The notes: generated by a model from the letters alone, not told the origin. DNA of 64,000 bases from Clostridia bacterium (GCA_045592445.1 JAZNUV010000040.1:864-64863), one strand, 5' to 3'; counted from the first letter of the stretch, positions 30,955-48,785 are shown. Program-made: numbers and translations.

Positions 30955-32640
30955 TTGAACAGAACAGAAAAAGTATATGCTTTCTTAAAGAACCAAGCAA
31001 AAGTACCGCTTTTAGCAGACGAAATCGCATCTATGCTTTGTGTTCCTGCTTCGGAACGTGACTCTTTTTATGCTATATTAGATACACTGGTTACGGAAAA
31101 ACGCGTATATTGTCACAGCGGCAGATATAGCGTAGTCCAAAAACCTGATATCAATCGTTTTCTTTCTAATGTCTTTGCCGCACATGGTTTTCAAGCTACT
31201 TTTCCTGCTTCTGTACTGACTGCGGCACAAAAACTTCCCACCGAAGTGCATATCCCAAAAGGCAGACGTGACCTGCGTGATTTACTCACCTTTACAATTG
31301 ATGGCGCGGACGCACGCGATTTTGATGATGCGATTTCAATTGAAAAAACCGAAGTAGGATTTTGCCTTTATGTTCATATTGCGGATGTTTCACACTATGT
31401 TCAAAACAATGATATAATTGATAAAGAAGCCTATTTGCGCGGGACAAGTTGTTATTTACCTGACCGCGTTGCTCCCATGTTGCCACTACCGATTTCAAAC
31501 GGAATTTGCAGTTTGTCTCCGCATGTTGACAGACTTACAATTACAACGGTAATGCATATTGACCAAAACGGTATAGTTACAGATTTTGATGTCTTTGAAT
31601 CTGTAATCTGTTCCGATTATCGTCTTATATACGATGATGTTTCTGACATGCTTGCTAAAGATACATGTCCGCCTTCATACAGTGCTGTCTTTCCGGCCTT
31701 AAAGACACTGGCATCTTTATGCATTCTATTGCATGCAAATCGAAAAGCTGCAGGCAATTTGGAATTTAACATTCCTGAACCTATCCCTGTTTTGAATCAA
31801 GAAGGGCAAGTTACAGAAATCAAGTCCGAAGCAAACGGAATTGCCAATCAAATGATCGAAGATTGCATGGTGCTTTGCAATCAAGTTATTGCTGAATTTA
31901 TATATCACATAGATGCACCTTTTATTTATCGAGTGCATGAAGCACCCGACCGCGAGAAAACCGCACGTCTTACAAATCAGCTCGCTACTTTAAACATTCC
32001 TTTTTCCGGGAAAATATCTGCTGCAAAAGTAAATTCGATTATAGATAAAGTGCAGAATACACCCCGTGCATTCATTGTAAATACACTTTTATTACGCGCA
32101 ATGATGAAAGCAAAATACAGTCATGAAAATCTTGGCCATTTTGGTCTTGCACTCAAGTATTACTGTCATTTTACATCTCCGATACGTCGTTATCCGGATT
32201 TAATGTGTCATCGGGTTGTAAAAGCTATTTTGCACGGCGAAGATGCATCCAAATTTGCAAAGAAAATACGGTATGCTGCACAAGACGCATCAGAGCGCGA
32301 GGAACAAGCCGTCGAAGCTGAACGAGATGGGTTGCGTTTTTTCTCCTGTCTTTACATGGCTTCACACATTGGCGAAACATACTCTGCTGTTATCTCTTCT
32401 GTCTTGGATTTTGGTTTCTTTGTTACGCTGCCATTTCCTGTGGAAGGGCTTGTACATGTGAATACACTCTCGGATGATTATTATATTTTTGACGAAAATA
32501 ATGTGTCACTCTGCGGCAAGCATACAAAAAAGTGTTATCATCTCGGAGACGTTGTATATGTTCGTCTTGTAAATGTAGATTGTTCCCTTTTACACATAGA
32601 CTTTGTTTTAGTTGAAAACGATGGTGAGATTGGAGTTTAA
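30955..32640 (+). CDS. rnr: RNase II/R family 3'-5' exoribonuclease (compact RNase R: HTH + RNB + S1, no canonical cold-shock domains)
   Basis: TTG start 30955 with AAAGGAG RBS at 7-nt spacing; RNB motifs ([19 protein letters not shown]...[18 protein letters not shown]); C-terminal S1 domain; rnr-smpB adjacency. Confidence 0.85.
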
Positions 32641-32641
32641 A

Positions 32642-33094
32642 ATGGAAAAAATAATTGCACAAAATAAAAAAGCAAGACATGATTTCTTTGTTGAAGAAAC
32701 CTTAGAAGCTGGCATTGTTTTATTTGGAACGGAAGTAAAATCTGTCCGTGGTGGCAAAGTATCTTTAAAGGATAGCTATGCCTCCGTAAAAAACAATGAG
32801 CTATATGTGCACGGTTTACATATCAGTCCATACGAACAAGGAAACATTTTTAATAAAGACCCGCTTCGAGACAGAAAACTCCTGATGCACAAAAAAGAAA
32901 TACGTCGTTTGCACGCCGCTGTCATGCAAAGCGGATACACCCTTGTTCCGCTTGATTTACATTGGAGTGGCTCAAATGTCAAGCTTTCGCTCGGTCTGTG
33001 CAAAGGCAAAAAACTATACGACAAGCGTGAAAGCGCCGCAAAACGTGACGCCATGCGAAACATGGATAGGATTTTAAAGGAGCGACAAGCATGA
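32642..33094 (+). CDS. smpB: SsrA-binding protein
   Basis: [12 protein letters not shown]...GTEVKS SmpB signature; starts 2 nt after the rnr stop. Confidence 0.95.
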
Positions 33095-37407: not shown

Positions 37408-38355
37408 TTATTTCAGTTCAGAAGCTTTGCCGTTACAGCCAAGAACATTAACCAGCTTATGCTTTACAAGACCTTTAATAGCTTCACGTGCAGGTTTCAA
37501 GTACTGTCTCGGATCAAAATGGTCGGGGCTTTCTGCAAAATGCTTACGGATGCTGCCTGTCATTGCAAGACGAAGGTCAGAGTCAATATTGATTTTGCAA
37601 ACGCTCATGGAAGCAGCTTTACGAAGCATGTCCTCAGGAATACCAATTGCATCGGGCATTTTACCGCCGTTTGCATTGATCATTTCTACAAATTCCGGAA
37701 TAACAGAAGAAGCACCATGCAAAACGATCGGGAAACCGGGCAGCTTTTCGCTTACTTTTTCGAGAATATCAAAACGAAGTTGCGGCTTCTGACCGGGCTT
37801 AAATTTATAAGCACCATGGCTTGTACCAATTGCAATCGCCAAAGAGTCAACACCTGTGCGCTCTACAAATTCGATAACCTGAGCAGGGTCAGTATAGGAA
37901 GCATCTTCTGCGGAAACATTTACTGCATCCTCAATGCCGGCCAAACGACCAAGTTCACCTTCTACAACAACACCCTTATCGTGTGCATATTCAACAACCT
38001 GTTTTGTCAATTTAATATTATCTTCAAAACTATGATGTGAGCCGTCAATCATTACAGAAGTAAAACCGCCGTCGATACAGGATTTGCAAAGTTCAAATGT
38101 ATCACCATGGTCAAGGTGTACACAGATGGGCAAATCTGTTTCGATGATTGCAGCCTCAATCAGTTTCATGAGATATGTGTGGTTTGCGTACTTACGTGCG
38201 CCTGCGGAAACCTGGAGAATTAAGGGTGCATCTTCTTCTTTTGCAGCCTCTGTAATCCCCTGGATGATTTCCATGTTGTTCACGTTGAAAGCACCGATTG
38301 CGTAGCCGCCGTCATATGCTTTTTTGAACATTTCCTTTGATGTTACTAATGCCAT
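37408..38355 (-). CDS. fba: class II fructose-1,6-bisphosphate aldolase
   Basis: 315 aa, class II aldolase pattern (GAFNVNNME...HLDHG...EGELG). Confidence 0.95.
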   Translation of the reverse strand: MALVTSKEMFKKAYDGGYAIGAFNVNNMEIIQGITEAAKEEDAPLILQVSAGARKYANHTYLMKLIEAAIIETDLPICVHLDHGDTFELCKSCIDGGFTSVMIDGSHHSFEDNIKLTKQVVEYAHDKGVVVEGELGRLAGIEDAVNVSAEDASYTDPAQVIEFVERTGVDSLAIAIGTSHGAYKFKPGQKPQLRFDILEKVSEKLPGFPIVLHGASSVIPEFVEMINANGGKMPDAIGIPEDMLRKAASMSVCKINIDSDLRLAMTGSIRKHFAESPDHFDPRQYLKPAREAIKGLVKHKLVNVLGCNGKASELK

Positions 38356-38569
38356 TTAAAATCTCTCCCTTTCCATATCATTATGCATTTTATAATATCA
38401 TACCATACTTTGTAAGTCAAGATAAAATTGCATATTTTTTCAAAAAAAAATAAAGATTTTTTCTATATTTTATGTGTATCGTTTAAAACAAGTAGATTTT
38501 TATTTATTTTTGTATTTTCTTATATCAATCGGAAACACTATAGTATACTACTGCATTTTGGGAGGAACT

Positions 38570-41500
38570 ATGAGACAAAGCATTAAAAAAAGTTTTTTTC
38601 AAATCAAAAAAACATATTTATCACTAAAAACCGAAAACAAAACAATGAAATCAGGCTCAGATGCCGAATGGCTTTCTGATAATTTCTATATTTTTGAACA
38701 GGAATATCTGGCAGTAAAAACCATACATCCAAAAGGTTTAAATGCTAAAAAAGCAGTCCAAACCATGTCCAGATTTATTGAATCTTTTTTTGCAAAGCAT
38801 GATTATCTTTTAGAGGAAAGTTCGTTAAAATCCGCGCTTGATGAAGCACAAAAAACATCATATTTCTCCTCCTGTGCACTACGTATGCTTCCTTATTGCA
38901 TACGTAAAGCCCTTCTGACGCGGGCAGCAGTTTTATGCCGTACGCCGCAAAAGGACGGATTGTTTAAAAATATAATTTTCTCTTTCCTTGCACTCCGTAA
39001 TATCAATATGGAAAAGATTTTTGCTTCGCATTCTGTCGTTGATTCCATATTCTCCACTGATTTAATATATGAAGAAATGACAGAAAACACAAAAGAAACC
39101 TATCGAAAAATTATAACAAATCTTGCTTTGAAAAGTAAAAAAAGCGAACATGATGTAGCCAACGCCGTAGTATCCTTAACAAAAAAGAAAAAAGGGTCTG
39201 CAGCACACGTTGGCTTTTTTCTGATTGGTAACGGCAGAGATGAATTGCAGGATGTTCTTCATTTGAAACGGCAAAAAAAAATAAACAAGTCACTCATATA
39301 CATTCTGTCTGTTCTTTCCCTTACGCTTTTAACGGGTCTTTCTCTTTTTTATATAACAAGGCAAATACTATGGACGCTTTTATCTTTGATTCCCATTTCT
39401 GAAATTATAGTCACTCTTTTACAGTATGTTGTACTAAAATCAACACCTGTGCGCGAACTGCCGGCAATCAAATCAGAAAATTGTGTTTCTGAACCCGTTC
39501 TTATTGTGTACCCTACTCTTCTTTCCTCTGCAAAAAAAGCTGAAGAAATGGCAAAAAAACTGGAAACTGCATATCTTGCAAATTGCAATCATAATCTTCA
39601 TTTTGCAATTTTAGGTGATTTTAAAGATGCAAATGAGAAAAACGAGGATACCGCTATACCGAATGCTGCCTCAAACGCCATCCGTAATCTGAATGCACAA
39701 TATGGTGACCGCTTTTATTTTCTGCATCGATCACAAGTTTACAGTAAAGCACAAAAAAAGTGGATGGGATGGGAGCGAAAACGTGGTGCGCTTTCGGATT
39801 TAAACAATTTTTTACGTGGAGAATATACATTTGAGTACACAGAAGGACGTATACAAAATCTCCAAAATCTCCAAAATATAAACTATGTTTTAACGCTTGA
39901 CGATGATACACTTCTACCGCCGGATTCCGTTACACGCCTTTTAGGCATTGCCCTGCATCCGCTTAATAAGCCAATTATACAAAATGGCATTGTAACAAAT
40001 GGCTATGGTATTATTCAGCCTCGCATCTGTGTTCGCATTGAAAGTGCATGGAAAACCTTATTTTCACGTATATTCGCAGGGCAAGGCGGAATCGATACCT
40101 ATCACACGTCTGTATCTGAATTTTACATGGATTTATTTGGTGAGACTGTTTTTACAGGGAAAGGTCTTTATCATGTAGATACATTCCGAAAGTGCATGTC
40201 TATCCCACCTGATACGGTTTTAAGCCATGACCTTTTAGAAGGCAACTATGTCCGTTGTGCATTGGCATCTGATGTACAAGTTTTCGACGGATTCCCGCAC
40301 CGATTCCCTGCGTATGTAATTCGCCAACATCGTTGGATTCGCGGTGATTGGCAAATTATGCCGTGGTTATTTAAATTTGTACGGACTGAAAATGGCGATA
40401 AGGTTAAAAACCCACTGTCGGTTCTGTCTAAATGGAAAATATTTGAGAATTTACGGCGTAGTGTTACACCGATTTTTCAACTTATACTCATCTTATTTGG
40501 GAATCCGCTCTCGGTTCTCACTGCATTTGCCTCTCTCCTTTTTCCAATGCTTTTATACTGTATCGATGCAATCTTACAAAAAAGCTTTTTGTATATGGGA
40601 GAAAAGATATACACTTTCCTCATCTATGGATTTCGAGGCATTCTTTATCAATTCACGCTTTCCGTTGCCTTTCTTGCACAAAACGCGTATTATGCATTTC
40701 ATGCAGTTGTAACAGGCATTTATCGCACAATTACTCATAAAAAAACATTGGAATGGGTAACTGCTGCAGATGCAGATACAAACGGTATTTTTACCCTTGC
40801 CTCCTCCTGCATTTTTATGCTACCTTCTGTTGTTATTGGTCTTATATGCCTTCTTTTGGTTTTAAATGGTTTTTTTGAGAGCGGCATTAAACTTATACTT
40901 GGCATAGTTTTTATTATTGCGCCCGTCCTTCTCTATATTACCGGACAGGAAAGCGAAACGAAAACGCCCGTACTTTCAAAAAAAAGAGAGATGCTTTTAC
41001 GCGAAACTGCAAAGCACACTTGGAATTTCTTTCGGGATTATATGACAGAAGAAGACCATTTTTTACCTCCCGACAATATACAAATAAAACCATATAAAGG
41101 AATTGCGCACAGAACAAGTCCGACCAACATTGGATTTGGTATGATTGCATGTCTTTGTGCCTATCATCTTTCATTTATCACAGCACAGGAACTGGAAACA
41201 CGACTTACAAGAACCATTGATACAATTGAATCTCTTGACAAATGGAAGGGGCATTTGTATAACTGGTATGACACAAAAACGCTTTCTCCACTCTCTCCGC
41301 GTTATATTTCCACTGTGGACAGCGGCAATTTCGTTTGCTATTTAATTGTCGTAATGATGGGGATTTCCTCTATATTTGACAAATCACATCCCCTTATAAA
41401 ACGACTGCAACGCTTAATTGAAAATACAAATTTTATCCCGCTTTATAATGCAAAGAAAAATCTTTTTGCCATTGGTTTTTCGGTTGACGAAAACAAGCTT

Positions 41501-44500
41501 TCTTCTGCTTATTATGATTTTCTTGCCAGTGAGGCAAGACAAGCAAGTTTTATTGCCATTGCGCTTGGGCAAATTCCCGCAAAGCACTGGTTCTCTTTGG
41601 GGCGCGGATTAACTGCATCGGATGGATATAAAGGGCTTATGTCTTGGTCAGGCACTATGTTTGAGTATTTTATGCCGCTTCTCATTATGAGAACATACCG
41701 TGGTACGCTTTTAGACGAAACCTATCGCTTTGCTTTAAATTGCCAGAAACGGTATGGCAGGCGGAGACGTATTCCGTGGGGTGTATCTGAATCCGGATTT
41801 TTTGGATTTGATTCTGACGGGAGCTACCAATACAAAGCATTTGGTGTGCCTTCGCTCGGTCTTGTCCGTCAGACAGATGATGATGTCGTTATCGCCCCTT
41901 ACGCAACTCTTTTAGCGCTGATGATAGACCCCCGTACCGCACTACAAAATATGTCTCTGCTAAAAAAGGCAGGCGTATATGGTGAGTATGGCTTTTATGA
42001 AGCAGTAGATTATACGCCTTCTCGCATGCACGGAAATATGCGCCGCGGTATTGTTAAAAGTTATATGGCGCACCACGCAGGCATGTCTTTAGCTGCGATT
42101 ACAAACGTTTTGGCTGATAATATTCTGCAGCAATATTTTCATGCATATCCAAAAGTGCATGCATATGAGCCATTTTTAAAGGAACGTATACCCTTGCGCA
42201 CACAGGTTATGCAAGCACGAAACGAGCGCGTTCTGCCTGTCCGTTCACGTTATAAAGCACAAAACACATGTGTACGTTCATTTATGCGTTCAGATACACT
42301 TCCCCGCCCCATTACGTTTTTGTCAAACGGCAGTTATCATCTTTTAATAGACAGTTCAGGTTTCGGCTACAGTTCACTTGACACGGTTCAATTTAACAAA
42401 TTTTATCCCGCTCGTGGTGGTGGAGAATCTGTGTATGTTGTAAATCCTACGACTCATGACGTATGGGACGGATACGGAGAACGATGTACCTTTTCGGGAC
42501 ATGCTGCGGAATACTTTGGTTCGCATGGTAATATCGAAACTGTATTATCTGTCACAGTATGTCCTGATGATAATTGTGCTTCACGCCGCATTACAATTAT
42601 CAATAAATCTGGAAAAAGACGCGTTTTTGAAGTTTATTATTATACGGATATCTGTTTAACTGTTCCCTCCGCCGCACTTGCACACAACACCTTCTCAAAT
42701 CTATTTGTCACAACAAAAATGGAAGCAGATGTTCTATATGCAGAAAGACGGCAAAGAAGTAATAACGAAAAAACATTTATTGGCTTTTTGACTGCATATA
42801 CAGAGGGTAACTCCATCGGAGAAATTCAATTCGATACAGACAGATTGTCATTTTGTGGGCGTGAGGGCATTTCACCCATGACATTTGAAGGAACGGATAT
42901 CCTCGCAGGCAGACAAGGTATTGTGTTAGACCCTTGTTTTGCCGTAAAGCTTCGAATTTCTATAGAAAGCGGTGAAAGCGGCTCCGTCACCTTCCTTTCG
43001 GGCATGGCGGAAACACATGAAAAAGCAGCTTCTATTACGAAAAAATATAAAAAAAATCCAATAAATTTCAAAGAAGCAGCTGCATTGTACGTTAAGAATA
43101 ACTTACCTGTAAATTTCAAAGAGAGCGAAGAAATTGATATTATGCATATTGCAGGCTATATGCTCTATGGTAATAATCCCGACCTATCTCTGTACAGAGA
43201 GAAAAACACGAAAATGCGAAATACCTTGTGGAAAATGGGGATATCGGGCGACTATCCAATCTTAACGGTAAAAATTAGTAAAGAAGAAAATGCAGAAATT
43301 TTATCTACGCTTGTAAAAGCGCAAAAATATTGGCTGTATAACGGGTTCCGAACTGACCTTGTTGTTTTTTGTGATGAACCCGGCGGCTACACGATGCCAA
43401 TTTACCAAATGGCAAGTAAAATGAAAAATACAGGCATATTTATCTTGAAACGATGCGATGTAGATGCAGGCGATATAAATTTTTTATATGCTGTCTCCTC
43501 TGTGTATATTGATAGTGAAAAAAACGGAATCAAAAATATTCCACCCTATCCTGCTATCCCCCAAAAACGTTTGCCTTTAAAAGAGAATCACCACGATAAA
43601 AAACCTGATATACCCCCACTTGTCTATATGAACGGATACGGCGGGTTTCATAAAGAAAATTCCGAATACGTTATAATACAAACAAAAGGCGGTTCCACAC
43701 CCATGCCCTGGGTCCATGTTATTGCAAATCCGTCTTTTGGGTTTATAGCAGGCGAATCAGGCGGCGGTAACACTTGGTGCGATAACAGTCATGCCTTCCG
43801 TATATCACCTTGGTATAACGATGCAGTATTAGACCCAATGGGAGAACGACTTTTTCTCTTTGACGAAAATGATATTTGGTCACCCATGGCAGGCACATTC
43901 CGTGAGGAAGGCCATTTTATGACGCGCTACGGCTTTGGCTATGCAGTATATACACGTATTACGCGCGATTTATTTCATGAGGCGACACTCTTCACACCCC
44001 CTACGGGCAAGAAAAAAATCATTTGTCTGCATATCCGAAACGAGGGTAAATCTACACGCCGATTTCATGTACAATATGAATTTGTGCCCGTACTTGGCGT
44101 GATCGAAAAAGCGGATGATATAAAAATCAAAGTTGAAAAAAACTGTGTTTATGCAGAAAACGCAATGACAAATCCGAATCTATCCGTATATCTTTCGGGT
44201 GGAGATGACTCGATATGCAATGGCGACGGGCATCTTGTCCGGGCAAAAAAAGAAATTGAACTAAAACCCAATGAAACAGCAGAAGTTGTTTTTGTACTCG
44301 GTGCAGACAACACTCCTATCGTGAATGCGGAAACGGCCCTGTCCGAAACCAAAGCATGGTGGAAAAATCTTCTCAGCGGTATTTCTGTGGAAACAGATAC
44401 AGTTGCAGATGACCTTTTGCTTTCCGGATGGCTCTTGTACCAGACGGTAGCCTGTCGTTTATTTGCAAAGTCAGCATTCTATCAGTCTGGAGGTGCCACA

Positions 44501-45811
44501 GGATTCCGCGACCAGTTGCAAGATGCTCTGGCACTTTTGTATACGGCACCCGAAATGGTTAAACAACAAATACTCTATCATGCAGCCTATCAATTTCAGG
44601 AAGGCGATGTGTTTCATTGGTGGCATCACGACGAACGAGGTGTTCGCACAAGATTTACGGATGACAGATTATGGCTTCCTTATACACTCTGTCGCTATCT
44701 CGAGGTGACAGAGGATGAAAGTATCTTGGATGCCCCTGTTTCCTTTATAATAGAGCCGCCTTTAGAACCCCACGAGGAAGAACGCTATACGTTTGTAAAA
44801 GAAAGAACTGCACCCCATCCCCTATATGAGCATGCTGTAAGAGCAATTGAAATTTCTCTTTCAAAAGGACAACACGGCTTACCGCTTATGGGTGGCGGAG
44901 ATTGGAATGACGGCATGAACGCTGTCGGCATACGCGGTGAAGGAGAAAGTGTTTGGCTAGGTTGGTTTTTAAAACACGTACTTGAACTTTTTATTCCAAT
45001 CGCCGAAAAACGTGGTGATATTGAACGTGCCAAAAGGTACAAACACGAAATGCATTTACTCTTAGAAGCGCTTGAAGCAACCTGGGATAATACACATTAT
45101 GCACGTGCATATTTTGACAGCGGCGCACCTCTCGGCACCTCCGACTCTACGGAATGTTCGATTGATGCCATCAGTCAGGCATGGGCAGTCATTGCAGGCG
45201 GCGGGCGTGTCTCCAGACAAAAAACTGCAATGGATACTCTTTACAGCACGCTTGTAGACCGTGAGAAAGGAATTATACGGCTTCTTGCTCCACCCTTTCA
45301 AAACAGCAAAGAAAGCCCCGGCTACATTCAAAGCTATCCTGCCGGCATACGAGAAAATGGCGGTCAATATACGCATGGGGCAATATGGGTTGCCATAGCA
45401 TTTGCAATGCTTGGAAATCCTGCTCGGGCTTTGGAATTGTTTCGAATGTTAAATCCTGTTTTAAGGTCGGAAACCCGTGTAAGTGCAAATATATATAAAG
45501 CTGAGCCTTATGTAATGACAGCGGATATCTACACGGCAAGAGATCATGTCGGACGCGGTGGCTGGAGTTGGTATACGGGTGCCGCGTCATGGATGTATCA
45601 GCTTGGCATACAATATATACTTGGCTTTAAAAAACAGGGAAATATTGTTTCCTTTAAACCTTGCCTCCCTCCTGAAAAATTAGGGTTTACGCTTCGATAT
45701 CGTTACAAATCTTCTATGTATATTTTCCACGTGCACGGCAATTCCGAAGATCCCATTGTACTTTCGGATGATGGAAAAACACATGAAATTACAATTGGTA
45801 AAAAAGAATAA
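38570..45811 (+). CDS. giant multidomain glycosyltransferase/glycoside-hydrolase-like protein resembling cyclic beta-1,2-glucan synthase (TM - GT84-like - TM - (alpha/alpha)6 glucoamylase-like - GH94-like)
   Basis: ATG 38570 with GGGAGGA RBS; the track's GTG extension is discarded. Processive-GT motifs LTLDDDT and QHRWIRGDWQIMPW; at least six predicted TM helices; PTNIGFG...YNWYDT middle domain; C-terminal GGATGFRDQLQDALAL...DVFHWWH and GGGDWNDGMN motifs. Confidence 0.8.
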   Translation: MRQSIKKSFFQIKKTYLSLKTENKTMKSGSDAEWLSDNFYIFEQEYLAVKTIHPKGLNAKKAVQTMSRFIESFFAKHDYLLEESSLKSALDEAQKTSYFSSCALRMLPYCIRKALLTRAAVLCRTPQKDGLFKNIIFSFLALRNINMEKIFASHSVVDSIFSTDLIYEEMTENTKETYRKIITNLALKSKKSEHDVANAVVSLTKKKKGSAAHVGFFLIGNGRDELQDVLHLKRQKKINKSLIYILSVLSLTLLTGLSLFYITRQILWTLLSLIPISEIIVTLLQYVVLKSTPVRELPAIKSENCVSEPVLIVYPTLLSSAKKAEEMAKKLETAYLANCNHNLHFAILGDFKDANEKNEDTAIPNAASNAIRNLNAQYGDRFYFLHRSQVYSKAQKKWMGWERKRGALSDLNNFLRGEYTFEYTEGRIQNLQNLQNINYVLTLDDDTLLPPDSVTRLLGIALHPLNKPIIQNGIVTNGYGIIQPRICVRIESAWKTLFSRIFAGQGGIDTYHTSVSEFYMDLFGETVFTGKGLYHVDTFRKCMSIPPDTVLSHDLLEGNYVRCALASDVQVFDGFPHRFPAYVIRQHRWIRGDWQIMPWLFKFVRTENGDKVKNPLSVLSKWKIFENLRRSVTPIFQLILILFGNPLSVLTAFASLLFPMLLYCIDAILQKSFLYMGEKIYTFLIYGFRGILYQFTLSVAFLAQNAYYAFHAVVTGIYRTITHKKTLEWVTAADADTNGIFTLASSCIFMLPSVVIGLICLLLVLNGFFESGIKLILGIVFIIAPVLLYITGQESETKTPVLSKKREMLLRETAKHTWNFFRDYMTEEDHFLPPDNIQIKPYKGIAHRTSPTNIGFGMIACLCAYHLSFITAQELETRLTRTIDTIESLDKWKGHLYNWYDTKTLSPLSPRYISTVDSGNFVCYLIVVMMGISSIFDKSHPLIKRLQRLIENTNFIPLYNAKKNLFAIGFSVDENKLSSAYYDFLASEARQASFIAIALGQIPAKHWFSLGRGLTASDGYKGLMSWSGTMFEYFMPLLIMRTYRGTLLDETYRFALNCQKRYGRRRRIPWGVSESGFFGFDSDGSYQYKAFGVPSLGLVRQTDDDVVIAPYATLLALMIDPRTALQNMSLLKKAGVYGEYGFYEAVDYTPSRMHGNMRRGIVKSYMAHHAGMSLAAITNVLADNILQQYFHAYPKVHAYEPFLKERIPLRTQVMQARNERVLPVRSRYKAQNTCVRSFMRSDTLPRPITFLSNGSYHLLIDSSGFGYSSLDTVQFNKFYPARGGGESVYVVNPTTHDVWDGYGERCTFSGHAAEYFGSHGNIETVLSVTVCPDDNCASRRITIINKSGKRRVFEVYYYTDICLTVPSAALAHNTFSNLFVTTKMEADVLYAERRQRSNNEKTFIGFLTAYTEGNSIGEIQFDTDRLSFCGREGISPMTFEGTDILAGRQGIVLDPCFAVKLRISIESGESGSVTFLSGMAETHEKAASITKKYKKNPINFKEAAALYVKNNLPVNFKESEEIDIMHIAGYMLYGNNPDLSLYREKNTKMRNTLWKMGISGDYPILTVKISKEENAEILSTLVKAQKYWLYNGFRTDLVVFCDEPGGYTMPIYQMASKMKNTGIFILKRCDVDAGDINFLYAVSSVYIDSEKNGIKNIPPYPAIPQKRLPLKENHHDKKPDIPPLVYMNGYGGFHKENSEYVIIQTKGGSTPMPWVHVIANPSFGFIAGESGGGNTWCDNSHAFRISPWYNDAVLDPMGERLFLFDENDIWSPMAGTFREEGHFMTRYGFGYAVYTRITRDLFHEATLFTPPTGKKKIICLHIRNEGKSTRRFHVQYEFVPVLGVIEKADDIKIKVEKNCVYAENAMTNPNLSVYLSGGDDSICNGDGHLVRAKKEIELKPNETAEVVFVLGADNTPIVNAETALSETKAWWKNLLSGISVETDTVADDLLLSGWLLYQTVACRLFAKSAFYQSGGATGFRDQLQDALALLYTAPEMVKQQILYHAAYQFQEGDVFHWWHHDERGVRTRFTDDRLWLPYTLCRYLEVTEDESILDAPVSFIIEPPLEPHEEERYTFVKERTAPHPLYEHAVRAIEISLSKGQHGLPLMGGGDWNDGMNAVGIRGEGESVWLGWFLKHVLELFIPIAEKRGDIERAKRYKHEMHLLLEALEATWDNTHYARAYFDSGAPLGTSDSTECSIDAISQAWAVIAGGGRVSRQKTAMDTLYSTLVDREKGIIRLLAPPFQNSKESPGYIQSYPAGIRENGGQYTHGAIWVAIAFAMLGNPARALELFRMLNPVLRSETRVSANIYKAEPYVMTADIYTARDHVGRGGWSWYTGAASWMYQLGIQYILGFKKQGNIVSFKPCLPPEKLGFTLRYRYKSSMYIFHVHGNSEDPIVLSDDGKTHEITIGKKE

Positions 45812-45897
45812 AAAAATTTTTTATACCGGGCATGTTTTTTTGAAAAAAGTAAATACTGATATTGTATTATCAATTTTAAATGGGAGGATGTGTGAAA

Positions 45898-46080
45898 ATG
45901 ACACCAAAAGAACTTCTTTATCTCGAAGATTCCCTCGGCATGGAAGAGCAACTTCAAACCAAATGCAACGATTACGCTTCCAAAATCCAGGACGAGTCCT
46001 TAAAAAACACATTAACACAGCTTGCATCTCAGCATCAGCAACACTATAATTGTCTTTTATCACAACTAAAATCTAATTAA
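45898..46080 (+). CDS. CotF-related small spore coat protein (short form)
   Basis: 61 aa; GGGAGG RBS; pattern LxxED...EEQLQTKCNDYASKIQD..LKNTLTQLASQHQQHYNCLLSQL resembles the N-terminal half of the Coat F domain. Confidence 0.55.
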   Translation: MTPKELLYLEDSLGMEEQLQTKCNDYASKIQDESLKNTLTQLASQHQQHYNCLLSQLKSN

Positions 46081-46096
46081 AGAAAGGGTGATTTTT

Positions 46097-46357
46097 ATGG
46101 CAGCAAAGCAAAATATGACGGACCGCGAGTATATGGATGATATACTTTTAACCTCCAAAACACTTTCTAATCTTTATCACTACGCAGTGCAGGAATCGCC
46201 CACGGATAAACTGCATTATGAGTTTAAAAACATTTTAAATCAATCACTTGAAATGCAGCATAATATTTATTCGGTGATGACAGATAAGGGTTGGTATCAA
46301 ACCACACAGGCACCCGAGCAGCAAATCAATCAGGTTATTACGAAATTTTCAAACTAA
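46097..46357 (+). CDS. cotF: spore coat protein F (Coat F domain)
   Basis: 86 aa: MTDREYMDDILLTSKTLSNLYHYAVQES...LEMQHNIYSVMTDKGWY matches the Coat F domain consensus. Confidence 0.65.
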   Translation: MAAKQNMTDREYMDDILLTSKTLSNLYHYAVQESPTDKLHYEFKNILNQSLEMQHNIYSVMTDKGWYQTTQAPEQQINQVITKFSN

Positions 46358-46365
46358 CCATATGC

Positions 46366-46412
46366 AGAACAAAAGGCGGCAGAACAATTTATGTTCCGCC
46401 GCCTTACCGTTT
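46366..46412. terminator. bidirectional terminator between cotF and convergent dedA
   Basis: AAGGCGGC...GCCGCCTT stem followed by ACCGTTTATTT. Confidence 0.5.
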
Positions 46413-46449: not shown

Positions 46450-47058
46450 TTACTTGCGTCCTTTTTTCCTTTTTACAAAAAACCAAATCGCAACTATGAT
46501 AACAACCAATAAAATGACTGCCTTTAAAATCCATTCAATATATATCATTCCTTGTTCCCATGCTTCACCGCATAAGGAACCGGCGATCGATAAAATGGTA
46601 TTCCAAACAGCGCTTCCCAAAAAAGTCAATATCAAAAAAGAACTAAGATTCATTTCTGATATACCGGCAGGAATAGAAATCAAACTCCGCACAATCGGAA
46701 TACAACGACAAAGCAACACTGCTTTGTGCTCATATCTTACAAAAAAACGGTCCGCCTTTTCAATGTGTTCTGCATTTATATGCAATAATTTACCAACTTT
46801 CCCTGCACACAACTTTTTCAGCCGTTCTTTTTTGAGCGCCTTTCCTATGTAGTACAAAAGCAAAGCCCCGAAAAGAGACCCAACGCTGGCTGCAAACGCA
46901 ACTCCAAACACATTCATATTCGTATGCGTTGTCATAAAGCCACCAAATACTAAAACAAGTTCTGACGGAATTGGCGGGAAAATGTTTTCAACGAAAATCA
47001 AAAGACCGATTCCCAAATATCCATATGTATTGATTAACTCGATTAAAAAATCCTGCAT
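46450..47058 (-). CDS. DedA family membrane protein
   Basis: LGIGLLIFVENIFPPIPSELVLVFGGF DedA signature. Confidence 0.85.
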   Translation of the reverse strand: MQDFLIELINTYGYLGIGLLIFVENIFPPIPSELVLVFGGFMTTHTNMNVFGVAFAASVGSLFGALLLYYIGKALKKERLKKLCAGKVGKLLHINAEHIEKADRFFVRYEHKAVLLCRCIPIVRSLISIPAGISEMNLSSFLILTFLGSAVWNTILSIAGSLCGEAWEQGMIYIEWILKAVILLVVIIVAIWFFVKRKKGRK

Positions 47059-47086
47059 GACTTTCTCCGCTATACGCTTACCTTTC

Positions 47087-47707
47087 TCAGGTGTTTTTCA
47101 TAATAACACTTTCAATTATGTCCACTACGTCCTCGCAAGCATCCAGGCATAGCTCTAAATGCTCATAAATATCCGTCCATACAAAAAGTTCTCTATCGGA
47201 TGCATTGGATACCGATAGCTCGCGAATGCCATCAACCAAAAGCTTATCGCCTTCACTTTCGCAGTTATTTACAGCTACAATTTTCTCTTTTATAGTTTGC
47301 GAATGCTTAAAGTTTTTAAACTCGGCAAGTACGCCATCAAGTTCTTTTGCGCACTTTATAATGCTGTCAGCAAATAAAATAGCATCCTTACGAATATCCT
47401 GAATGTTAAACATATAAATGCGAAGCAATACATCTTCCAAATAGTCAACAACCGTATCCATCTGTTGCGCTAATGAAACAATATCCTCTCGTTCTATGGG
47501 TGTAATAAATTCATGCGCGAGCATAGCCGTCATTTCATGTCTTGTGCAGTCAGCACGATGCTCAATTTCATGAAGTGTATCAAGCTTTTCTTGCAAGGAA
47601 TTTGAATCAAATTCATGAAGGGCAGTATGTAAATACTCCGCACCCTCACAAATGATTTCTGAAACCTCTTTAAAATAGTTAAAATAGTCAAATCTCTTTT
47701 TAGCCAT
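47087..47707 (-). CDS. DUF47 (PhoU-like) phosphate-transport regulator family protein
   Basis: 206-aa helical protein adjacent to the PiT transporter gene, in the classic pit/DUF47 pairing. Confidence 0.7.
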   Translation of the reverse strand: MAKKRFDYFNYFKEVSEIICEGAEYLHTALHEFDSNSLQEKLDTLHEIEHRADCTRHEMTAMLAHEFITPIEREDIVSLAQQMDTVVDYLEDVLLRIYMFNIQDIRKDAILFADSIIKCAKELDGVLAEFKNFKHSQTIKEKIVAVNNCESEGDKLLVDGIRELSVSNASDRELFVWTDIYEHLELCLDACEDVVDIIESVIMKNT

Positions 47708-47732
47708 GTTTATTTCTCCTTTATGTAAAAAT

Positions 47733-48785
47733 TTAGAATATTATCAAGAATAATTTTACCATAAAATACGCCAAAAGACCGCAACCGGGAAATGTTAAGA
47801 CCCACGTCATAACCATCTCCCCAACTATTTTCCAATTCACGGCAGAAGCACGTTTAGAAAATCCGACACCCATAATAGAAGAGGTTTTTGTATGCGTTGT
47901 GCTGACAGGAATACCGGTCAGGGATGCTAAAAGCAAACAAAACGCTGCACTCGTGTCCGCTGCAAAGCCTTGATACGTCTTAAGCCGTACCATATCCATA
48001 CCGACGGATTTTATAATTTTATATCCACCCATTGATGTGCCAAGTGCCATAACAATGGAGCAAACTGCCATCAGCCAAAGCGGGATATCAAACTCTGATG
48101 CGCCACTTTGCCCGCCGCTAAGTGCAGATCCAAGCAAAAATACACCCATAAACTTTTGCCCGTCCTGTGCACCATGCATAAAAGCCATTGCGGCACCACC
48201 GCAGTTTTGCGCAATACGAAAGCCTTTATTCGCTTTCATTCTGTCACATCTCGAAAAAAGTTTTTCGACAACGCGAAGCATAACAAAACCAACCAAAAAT
48301 CCCAAAATAGTGGACAAAACCAAACCATAAATTACCTTTATCCACTCACTGCCGCTAATGCCGTCAATACTGCCATGAATCGCAATCGCAGCGCCTGAAA
48401 GGCCGGCAATCAATGCATGACTCTCACTTGTCGGAATTCCAAATTTCCACGCAGCTGTCGCCCATACAACAATCGCAAAAAGTGCAGCACAAAGCCCTGT
48501 TGTAGCCTCGGTTGGATTGCTCCCAAAATCCACCATTTTACTGATGGTTTCTGCAACCCGCCCGTTAATCATCGTCATAACAAACACACCGAGAAAATTA
48601 AATACAGCTGCCATAATAATAGCACTTCTTGGTTTTATAGATCTTGTGGACACGCAAGTTGCAATCGCGTTTGGTGCATCGGTCCATCCATTTACAAGAA
48701 TTACACCCAAAGTTAAAAGTGCGGTAATAATAGCAAGAGGGTTTCCTTTTACTGATTCAATATATTGTAAAATACCCGTTGTCAT
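47733..48785 (-). CDS. pit: inorganic phosphate transporter, PiT family
   Basis: PHO4 signature GWTDAPNAIAT repeated in both halves (GAQDGQKFMG). Confidence 0.9.
   Translation of the reverse strand: MTTGILQYIESVKGNPLAIITALLTLGVILVNGWTDAPNAIATCVSTRSIKPRSAIIMAAVFNFLGVFVMTMINGRVAETISKMVDFGSNPTEATTGLCAALFAIVVWATAAWKFGIPTSESHALIAGLSGAAIAIHGSIDGISGSEWIKVIYGLVLSTILGFLVGFVMLRVVEKLFSRCDRMKANKGFRIAQNCGGAAMAFMHGAQDGQKFMGVFLLGSALSGGQSGASEFDIPLWLMAVCSIVMALGTSMGGYKIIKSVGMDMVRLKTYQGFAADTSAAFCLLLASLTGIPVSTTHTKTSSIMGVGFSKRASAVNWKIVGEMVMTWVLTFPGCGLLAYFMVKLFLIIF

Follow-up and report, generated by a model that had tools for sequence, protein, structure and literature searches.

The yraG-yraF-adhB-yraE-yraD operon of Bacillus subtilis is controlled by sigmaG and is specific to the forespore (PMC6878958). 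The same work notes that the Coat F domain seems to matter in the forespore and proposes that CotF arose when two yra-type genes fused (PMC6878958); CotF is cut by the YabG protease during its maturation (PMC13553755). The cotF gene of B. subtilis and the CD0596-cotF-cotCB genes of Clostridioides difficile are mother-cell genes, transcribed by sigmaK or, in C. difficile, by sigmaE, and their products belong to the coat. Here we describe a related pair of small genes in a stretch of 64,000 nucleotides (nt) from a Clostridia bacterium (one strand, referred to as the window), in which open reading frame 1 (ORF1, 45898-46080, plus strand) and ORF2 (46097-46357, plus strand) lie immediately downstream of a giant gene for a cyclic glucan synthase-like protein (CGS, 38570-45811, plus strand). 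We consider it fairly probable that ORF1-ORF2 is an autonomous bicistronic forespore unit conserved in Clostridia, and that its adjacency to CGS is a matter of synteny within one clade, with local read-through.

The giant ORF ends with a TAA codon at 45809-45811 and is followed by a gap of 86 base pairs (bp, 45812-45897). ORF1 is preceded by the ribosome-binding site (RBS) GGGAGGA (45883-45889, 8-9 nt 5' of the start), and its start codon is set by the N-terminus MTPKEL, invariant in 27 homologues; ORF2 starts 16 nt beyond the ORF1 stop, with the RBS AAAGGGTGA (46083-46091) in between, both sites having been read from the sequence. An earlier, sequence-only reading of this locus had noticed two small genes, each with its own RBS, 86 bp after the giant gene, and this description is correct, the 61 amino acids (aa) that it gave to ORF1 being 60 aa plus the stop codon and the 86 aa of ORF2 being exact. 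It had also seen no convincing terminator between the giant gene and the pair; a terminator scan found no canonical terminator in the 86-bp gap, whose RNA fold is A/U-rich and no better than that of shuffled sequences (-15.6 kcal/mol, z=-1.5). A strong bidirectional intrinsic terminator with a 14-bp stem containing 8 G-C pairs lies 3' of ORF2 (46373-46405, both strands) and is common to the pair and to a convergent DedA/UptA-like gene.

A genome scan with an ORF1 alignment, taking one genome per species, gave 80 loci, nearly all of them from Clostridia or Oscillospiraceae metagenome-assembled genomes (MAGs); the loci of relatives obtained by homologue scans are designated below by L-numbers. 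An ORF2 homologue was found by tblastn directly 3' of ORF1 and on the same strand in 75 of the 80, a diverged ORF2 became visible by ORF inspection in 3 others, and the remaining 2 end at a contig edge, so that the pair is present in 78/78 testable loci, with a median ORF1-to-ORF2 spacing of 15 nt. Both are real genes, and their conservation goes far beyond chance. The pairing is universal in the family and ordinary for Clostridia and, as the arrangement is also known from yraG-yraF and yraE-yraD (PMC6878958), the view that a short and a fuller CotF-type protein side by side are unusual is not supported. In most relatives, where its upstream neighbour is unrelated or lies on the opposite strand, the pair must have transcription of its own. 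The pair was also seen in records labelled as organisms that do not form spores, namely L059 (NZ_CP188040.1, 'Alloiococcus sp. CFN-8'), L083 (a 'Bacteroidaceae bacterium' bin) and L086 (a 'Phascolarctobacterium succinatutens' bin); L083 is near-identical to the Clostridiales locus L082, so contamination during binning or mislabelling is likely there.

An alignment of the 130-nt regions that precede ORF1, taken from 81 loci with no two identical, shows a recurrent two-block element, G[CT]AT[AG]-N17/18-[ACG]A[AT]A[ACT]TA (GYATR-N17/18-vAwAhTA), with a strongly conserved G three bases 5' of the -10 block. It is perfect in 29/81 regions, against 0.21 in dinucleotide shuffles, and at least 11 of its 12 positions are matched in 57/81, against 6.4 in shuffles, while the reverse complements of the same regions gave 1 perfect site and 9 with at least 11/12. 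The distance from the end of the -10 to the ATG is also constrained (median 36 nt, interquartile range 33-43, range among relatives 29-48 nt), and the enrichment extends to relatives with as little as 41% identity. For sigmaK (AC-N16/17-CATAnnnTA) and for sigmaE, the 81 regions had no perfect match and near-perfect ones at shuffle level, the scores in the window being 9/11 and 8/11, respectively, and the sigmaA consensus was not enriched in the same regions.

The motif derives partly from the same 81 regions, so it was tested on independent promoters, those mapped experimentally in C. difficile (44 sigmaF/sigmaG and 70 sigmaE/sigmaK promoters; Saujet et al. 2013, Tables S6/S7, PMC3789822), and it occurs with at least 11/12 positions in 20/44 of the forespore promoters vs 6/70 of the mother-cell ones. 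Conversely, with a forespore position weight matrix (PWM) trained on the 44 mapped sigmaF/sigmaG promoters alone, the best scores of the pair regions average 12.7 bits, vs 5.7 bits for shuffled regions, and 53/81 lay beyond the 99th percentile of the shuffles; the mapped C. difficile forespore promoters themselves have a median of 10.3 bits, many being lower. At the level of the family, the sequence evidence is therefore strong that the pair has a promoter of the forespore (sigmaF/sigmaG) type, with no choice between the two factors because their specificities overlap (PMC3789822). Since this motif is conserved and those of sigmaE and sigmaK are not enriched, the products of the pair are probably made in the forespore, and a role as coat components is unlikely despite the label 'spore coat protein'. 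Part of the earlier proposal is upheld by these results, since a sporulation-type promoter in the gap had been suggested and the pair does have one of its own, predicted at a conserved position in the relatives; the mother-cell factors sigmaE and sigmaK that had been named for it do not fit, and the site in the window itself is weak.

The likeness to the yra genes includes the order of the genes, with a short hairpin gene directly 5' of, and co-directional with, a Coat_F gene as in yraG-yraF and yraE-yraD, and, as predicted from the upstream sequences of the family, probably control by a forespore-type promoter. The present loci differ in that they have a single pair, with no adhB between pairs, and in that they belong to Clostridia and not to Bacilli. 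The Yra proteins are larger, of about 65-81 and 99-122 aa, compared with 60 and 86 aa here, and they may share the motif 'V(K/Q)DPxL(K/R)' with the present proteins. As to CotF, the Coat_F domain is common to this protein and ORF2, and the split pair resembles its two halves, because CotF is the proposed fusion of two yra-type genes and is cut by YabG; in C. difficile a small gene, CD0596, is also located 5' of cotF. The difference is one of compartment, since the cotF genes are transcribed in the mother cell by sigmaK (or sigmaE in C. difficile) and give coat products, whereas the pair described here has a predicted forespore-type promoter and no sigmaE/sigmaK motif.

ORF2 encodes a Coat_F-domain protein, as had been noted earlier, which is YraF/YraD-like and has a match to PF07875 (E=6.2e-17, 62.0 bits, positions 1-62 of the 63 in the model) far above the gathering threshold of 25.7 bits. 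All 116 of its homologues have 79-105 aa and contain PF07875, and those that are named are called 'spore coat protein (CotF)'. ORF1, which had been taken for a CotF-like protein, matches Coat_F below the threshold (15.1 bits, E=0.027) and has other weak Pfam matches, to DUF2383 (E=0.006) and DUF892 (E=0.033), families that like Coat_F belong to the ferritin-like clan; across its family, weak matches to DUF2383, DUF892 and Coat_F were found in 21/28, 16/28 and 14/28 members, respectively (Coat_F at E<0.1, best 7e-4). Comparison of the ORF1-family and ORF2-family profiles with hhalign, using shallow and broad alignments, was not significant (P=0.02-0.08). Because of the sub-threshold score, the rival DUF matches and this comparison, ORF1 should be filed as 'ferritin-clan-like hairpin, CotF-associated' and kept outside the Coat_F family. 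Nor is it a CotF truncated to its N-terminal part, as had been proposed, because its alignment (model positions 5-46) spans nearly the entire 63-position model, which indicates a complete small hairpin protein. The ORF1 family is large, well conserved and stand-alone, with about 57-65 aa per member; 65 homologues are close, and clustering at 50% identity gives 426 clusters, the only informative cluster name being 'Coat F domain-containing protein' (Caldanaerobius). Protein searches with ORF1 and ORF2 returned Clostridia relatives only, of 57-105 aa.

In AlphaFold2 models, ORF1 is predicted to be a two-helix hairpin (helices 3-29 and 33-58, with a predicted local distance difference test score, pLDDT, of 93.8), compatible with a YraG/YraE-like or CotF-N-terminal-like role, and ORF2 a helical hairpin with an additional C-terminal helix (helices 9-33, 37-63 and 74-85, pLDDT 73). 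Each protein would supply one hairpin, and the two could give a four-helix bundle. The hairpins of ORF1 and ORF2 probably do pair into a four-helix, ferritin-like heterodimer, a step that we infer because the two genes are always linked and almost coupled in translation, because full-length CotF offers an analogy and because half-ferritins, such as the encapsulated ferritins EncFtn/EncB, set a precedent; these and the rubrerythrin-type four-helix bundles are among the closest known systems. ORF1 and ORF2 together do not provide the complete E/ExxH/E/ExxH set of di-metal ligands: ORF2 keeps E/D52-x-x-H55, with H55 invariant among homologues, while in ORF1 the place of the Glu is taken by A43, and H46 is replaced in distant members, so that an intact di-metal site in such an assembly is unlikely. 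Searches of PDB sequences with the family profiles gave chance matches only for ORF1 and none for ORF2, so that the 'CotF-like' structure 2RBD is of no use for comparison. Natural fusions of ORF1 and ORF2, sought among 150 representatives, were not seen, the longer matches owing their length to Q/G/Y-rich tails or mis-called starts.

The CGS gene is found near the pair only in the closest clade, in which ORF1 identity is about 74% or more. It adjoins the pair directly and on the same strand only in the window, L008, L009 and L013; a minus-strand glycerate-kinase gene lies between them in L001-L004, L011, L012, L016, L168, L175-L177 and L180, and a serpin gene plus the glycerate-kinase gene in L171. 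There is no CGS within 10 kb of the pair in L014, L015, L017 and L172, which are in the same identity range, nor in any of the more distant loci; in L005-L007 the pair is flanked by the minus-strand genes PIN7 and trpA. In the 82%-identical relative L172 (12938-15480), spoVT and an operon for a gerA-type germinant receptor lie at a distance of about 2.5 kb from the pair, a context that supports a spore-forming status for these lineages. From these arrangements, the ancestral order of the clade is read as fba (minus), CGS (plus), glxK (minus) and the pair (plus). When metagenomes were scanned with the N-terminus of CGS, the matches were for the most part distant homologues of 25-40% identity, spread over many phyla, rather than further orthologues, and the pair was present at 0/80 of these distant loci. 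There is no conserved cgs-cotF operon, because the adjacency is confined to the nearest clade, is often interrupted there and is absent from all the distant CGS loci; it is local synteny of one clade. Conservation of this adjacency in related genomes was the test that the sequence-only reading had proposed for itself, and the outcome goes against it. The neighbourhood of CGS and the pair is an accident of synteny in one clade that may have become a read-through unit in this genome.

The product of CGS contains GT2, Glycoamylase, GH94 supersandwich and GH94 catalytic domains (Pfam). It is homologous over its full length to Cgs of Agrobacterium tumefaciens (8rf9, E=0, 1355 bits, with 8rf9/8rf0 matched over four stretches) and matches the cyclization domain of Thermoanaerobacter italicus (8wy1, E=8e-142), so that its predicted architecture, GT, cyclization (GH189/GH144-like) and GH94 domains in full, is that of characterised Cgs, in the same order of GT, GH144-like cyclization domain and GH94 (PMC10901819, PMC10834661). 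Known Cgs enzymes have roles in host interaction and osmoadaptation in Proteobacteria; the Clostridia gene differs in being preceded by a predicted forespore-type promoter. CGS was seen split into two to four consecutive ORFs in L176 (1553-8764), L110 (9164-17327) and L116 (1494-9639), with frameshifts caused by pseudogenisation or assembly errors.

The start codon of CGS (ATG at 38570) is backed by the orthologue N-termini MK/RxSIKKSF, and 29 nt before it ends a candidate promoter (38511-38541, plus strand) with the -35 GTATT (38512-38516) and the -10 (GG)AAACACTA, whose 7-mer occupies 38534-38540, the full site being TGTATTT-N12-CGGAAACACTAT. It scores 12.9 bits, and on the two strands of the window together just 9 sites reach 12.5 bits or more; no sigmaA-like promoter was found on the plus strand upstream of CGS. 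Among nine CGS orthologues (the window, L168, L012, L009, L013, L016, L175, L177 and L180), six have a site above the 99th percentile of shuffles located 28-32 nt before the start, and 0/500 shuffles reach the mean; the sites of L175 (8.0 bits) and L177 (6.1 bits) are poor. The six distant CGS loci of lowest GC content were inspected by hand, and four have significant sites, L110 (17.3 bits), L116 (16.2 bits), L120 (13.2 bits) and L089 (12.1 bits), each with p<=0.006 and each followed after 31-45 nt by a plausible RBS and start codon. Exact matches of neighbouring proteins place L110 (EF-Tu and EF-G) and L120 (LL-diaminopimelate aminotransferase) in the Clostridia. The perfect motif was present in 0/80 of the distant metagenome CGS regions, a set that is only a crude negative control, as its automatic start-codon guesses are unreliable.

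Between the predicted -10 and the RBS of CGS (38541-38556) there is another conserved box, AAGCATACTA(T/A)GG, which reads TAGTATACTACTG in the window and is also found in L009, L012, L013 and L016. It resembles a -10 of the CATACTA type and may be a transcription start region, an element of the 5' untranslated region or a regulator site; as a mother-cell -10 it was rejected, there being no -35 at a suitable spacing. Upstream of CGS, in the minus strand, is fba, which encodes a class II fructose-bisphosphate aldolase (37408-38355) and is directly divergent in the window and in L168, an AP_endonuc_2 gene (xylose isomerase-like TIM barrel) being inserted between fba and CGS in L175 and L177; fba has a good sigmaA-like promoter with an extended -10 (TTGACT-17-TATTAT, minus strand, 38420-38392).

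In the window, the pair's own predicted forespore-type promoter is degraded (45830-45858, plus strand), with the -35 GCATG (45830-45834), a 17-nt spacer and the -10 AATACTG (45852-45858), 39 nt before the ATG. It is a candidate by positional orthology to the strong sites of the relatives, not by its score. Within the group of near relatives, the lowest scores belong to the window (7.2 bits), L013 (8.5 bits) and L008 (9.0 bits), in all of which the pair directly follows CGS, and the 13 loci in which the pair is separated from CGS or no adjacent CGS was seen (for L179, on 189 nt of upstream sequence only) score 11.2-16.8 bits. This pattern suggests that the pair promoter has decayed under read-through from CGS; a relaxed promoter would fit, because read-through from upstream would supply transcription and the gap has no terminator.

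The explanation that we favour is that the pair was ancestrally transcribed from its own sigmaF and/or sigmaG promoter, about 36 nt 5' of ORF1, that its transcript would end at the intrinsic terminator, and that the two products would be made inside the developing spore and act in the forespore. In this genome, the glycerate-kinase gene is absent, CGS runs on to the pair with no canonical terminator in between and the pair promoter appears weakened, so that the pair is probably expressed from a weak internal promoter plus read-through from the forespore-type promoter of CGS. Co-expression of CGS, ORF1 and ORF2 in the forespore during sporulation is plausible because of the forespore-type candidate promoter of CGS, the weak promoter of the pair and the lack of a terminator between them. 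If the synthase is expressed with the pair in sporulation, the forespore type of its promoter would place the glucan inside the spore, away from its surface: in the forespore cytoplasm, at the inner membrane or, if exported, in the intermembrane or the cortex space. That CGS and the pair make up one forespore transcription unit in this genome, and that the developing spore makes cyclic beta-1,2-glucan on the forespore side, is put forward tentatively, with rather less than even confidence; no report linking CGS to sporulation was found in the literature searched.

The sequence-only reading had proposed the mother cell as the site of expression, with the pair as coat proteins under sigmaE/sigmaK, either co-transcribed with CGS, which would imply a glucan on the spore surface, or transcribed from a promoter in the gap. 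The Coat_F domain of ORF2, the name of its homologues, the mother-cell expression of cotF in B. subtilis and of CD0596-cotF-cotCB in C. difficile and the open passage from CGS to the pair are all in line with this explanation, but the conserved motif of the pair is of the forespore type, perfect mother-cell motifs are missing from the 81 regions, in which near-perfect ones do not exceed the shuffle level, and the candidate promoter of CGS is also of the forespore type, which makes the explanation improbable and argues against a coat location and a surface glucan; its notion that CGS is expressed together with the pair may be right, but for the other compartment. Less unlikely, although we would still not expect it, is that the three genes form one operon driven from the CGS promoter and that the motif in the gap is a non-functional relic. 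A site in the gap that over a quarter of shuffles can match, no terminator, a well-scoring CGS promoter and the coincidence of the weakest pair promoters with direct CGS adjacency would all be explained in this way; it would require a presumed 7.3-kb read-through transcript, however, and the gap site still has 11/12 positions at the orthologous distance of 39 nt, while many mapped C. difficile forespore promoters score below their own median of 10.3 bits and the 95%-identical L008 holds a strong hairpin in its gap.

It could also be thought that the pair encodes vegetative ferritin-like or DUF892/DUF2383-type stress proteins, and that the AT-rich motif arose by chance or serves a different regulator. 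The best Pfam matches of ORF1 are to general families of the ferritin clan, the genes flanking the pair in the window are housekeeping genes and the hosts are uncultured, with sporulation presumed; against this, the motif is about 100 times as frequent as in shuffles, keeps a fixed distance to the ATG in relatives down to 41% identity and fits mapped forespore promoters and not mother-cell ones, a sigmaA-like promoter is not enriched, the pair of L172 lies near spoVT and gerA, and the studied analogues, the yra genes, depend on sigmaG. We regard this explanation as highly improbable.

Several points weigh against the forespore unit with local read-through that we prefer over these alternatives. 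All the promoters are predictions built on the consensus of C. difficile and B. subtilis, and the hosts are uncultured MAGs, in which sporulation is presumed. The site of the window, with 11/12 consensus positions and 7.2 PWM bits, is equalled by 28% of shuffled gaps. The decay of the pair promoter under read-through is only suggestive, because L009 adjoins CGS directly and yet has a pair promoter of 12.8 bits, because L008 has in its gap a strong hairpin followed by a T-run, and because the pattern amounts to about two independent events. The tie of ORF1 to CotF lies below the Pfam threshold, and the profiles of the two families do not match significantly; the heterodimer is drawn from gene linkage and fold only; and the equivalence of the pair to yraG-yraF and yraE-yraD is one of architecture, domain content and predicted regulation.

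As to the remaining surroundings, the genes 3' of the pair in the minus strand (46450-48785) encode a homologue of the DedA/UptA-like undecaprenyl-phosphate transporters (46450-47058), a PhoU_div (DUF47) protein and a PHO4/Pit phosphate transporter. None of these genes is related to the pair or keeps its place beside it in relatives. The smpB gene is located at 32612-33094, and ARAGORN and Rfam found no transfer-messenger RNA, tRNA or other RNA families in the window.

In our reading, the pair consists of split CotF-like forespore genes of a known kind that have been mis-described as 'coat protein'. The small 'spore coat protein CotF' genes of gut Clostridia are split, paired units with predicted forespore expression, like the uncharacterised yra genes, and the short partner is mostly annotated as 'hypothetical'; such genes should be taken neither to mark the coat nor to point to a surface glycan. 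The predicted forespore promoter of CGS is the most interesting result, as a prediction from sequence. If forespore sigma factors do transcribe CGS in Clostridia, cyclic beta-1,2-glucan, a polysaccharide whose known producers are all host-associated Proteobacteria, would have to be considered as a possible component of the spores of abundant anaerobes of the gut and rumen. Neither Bacillus nor C. difficile is known to have such a spore constituent on the forespore side, and its roles may include those of a compatible solute, a glass-former or a glucan associated with the germ cell wall.

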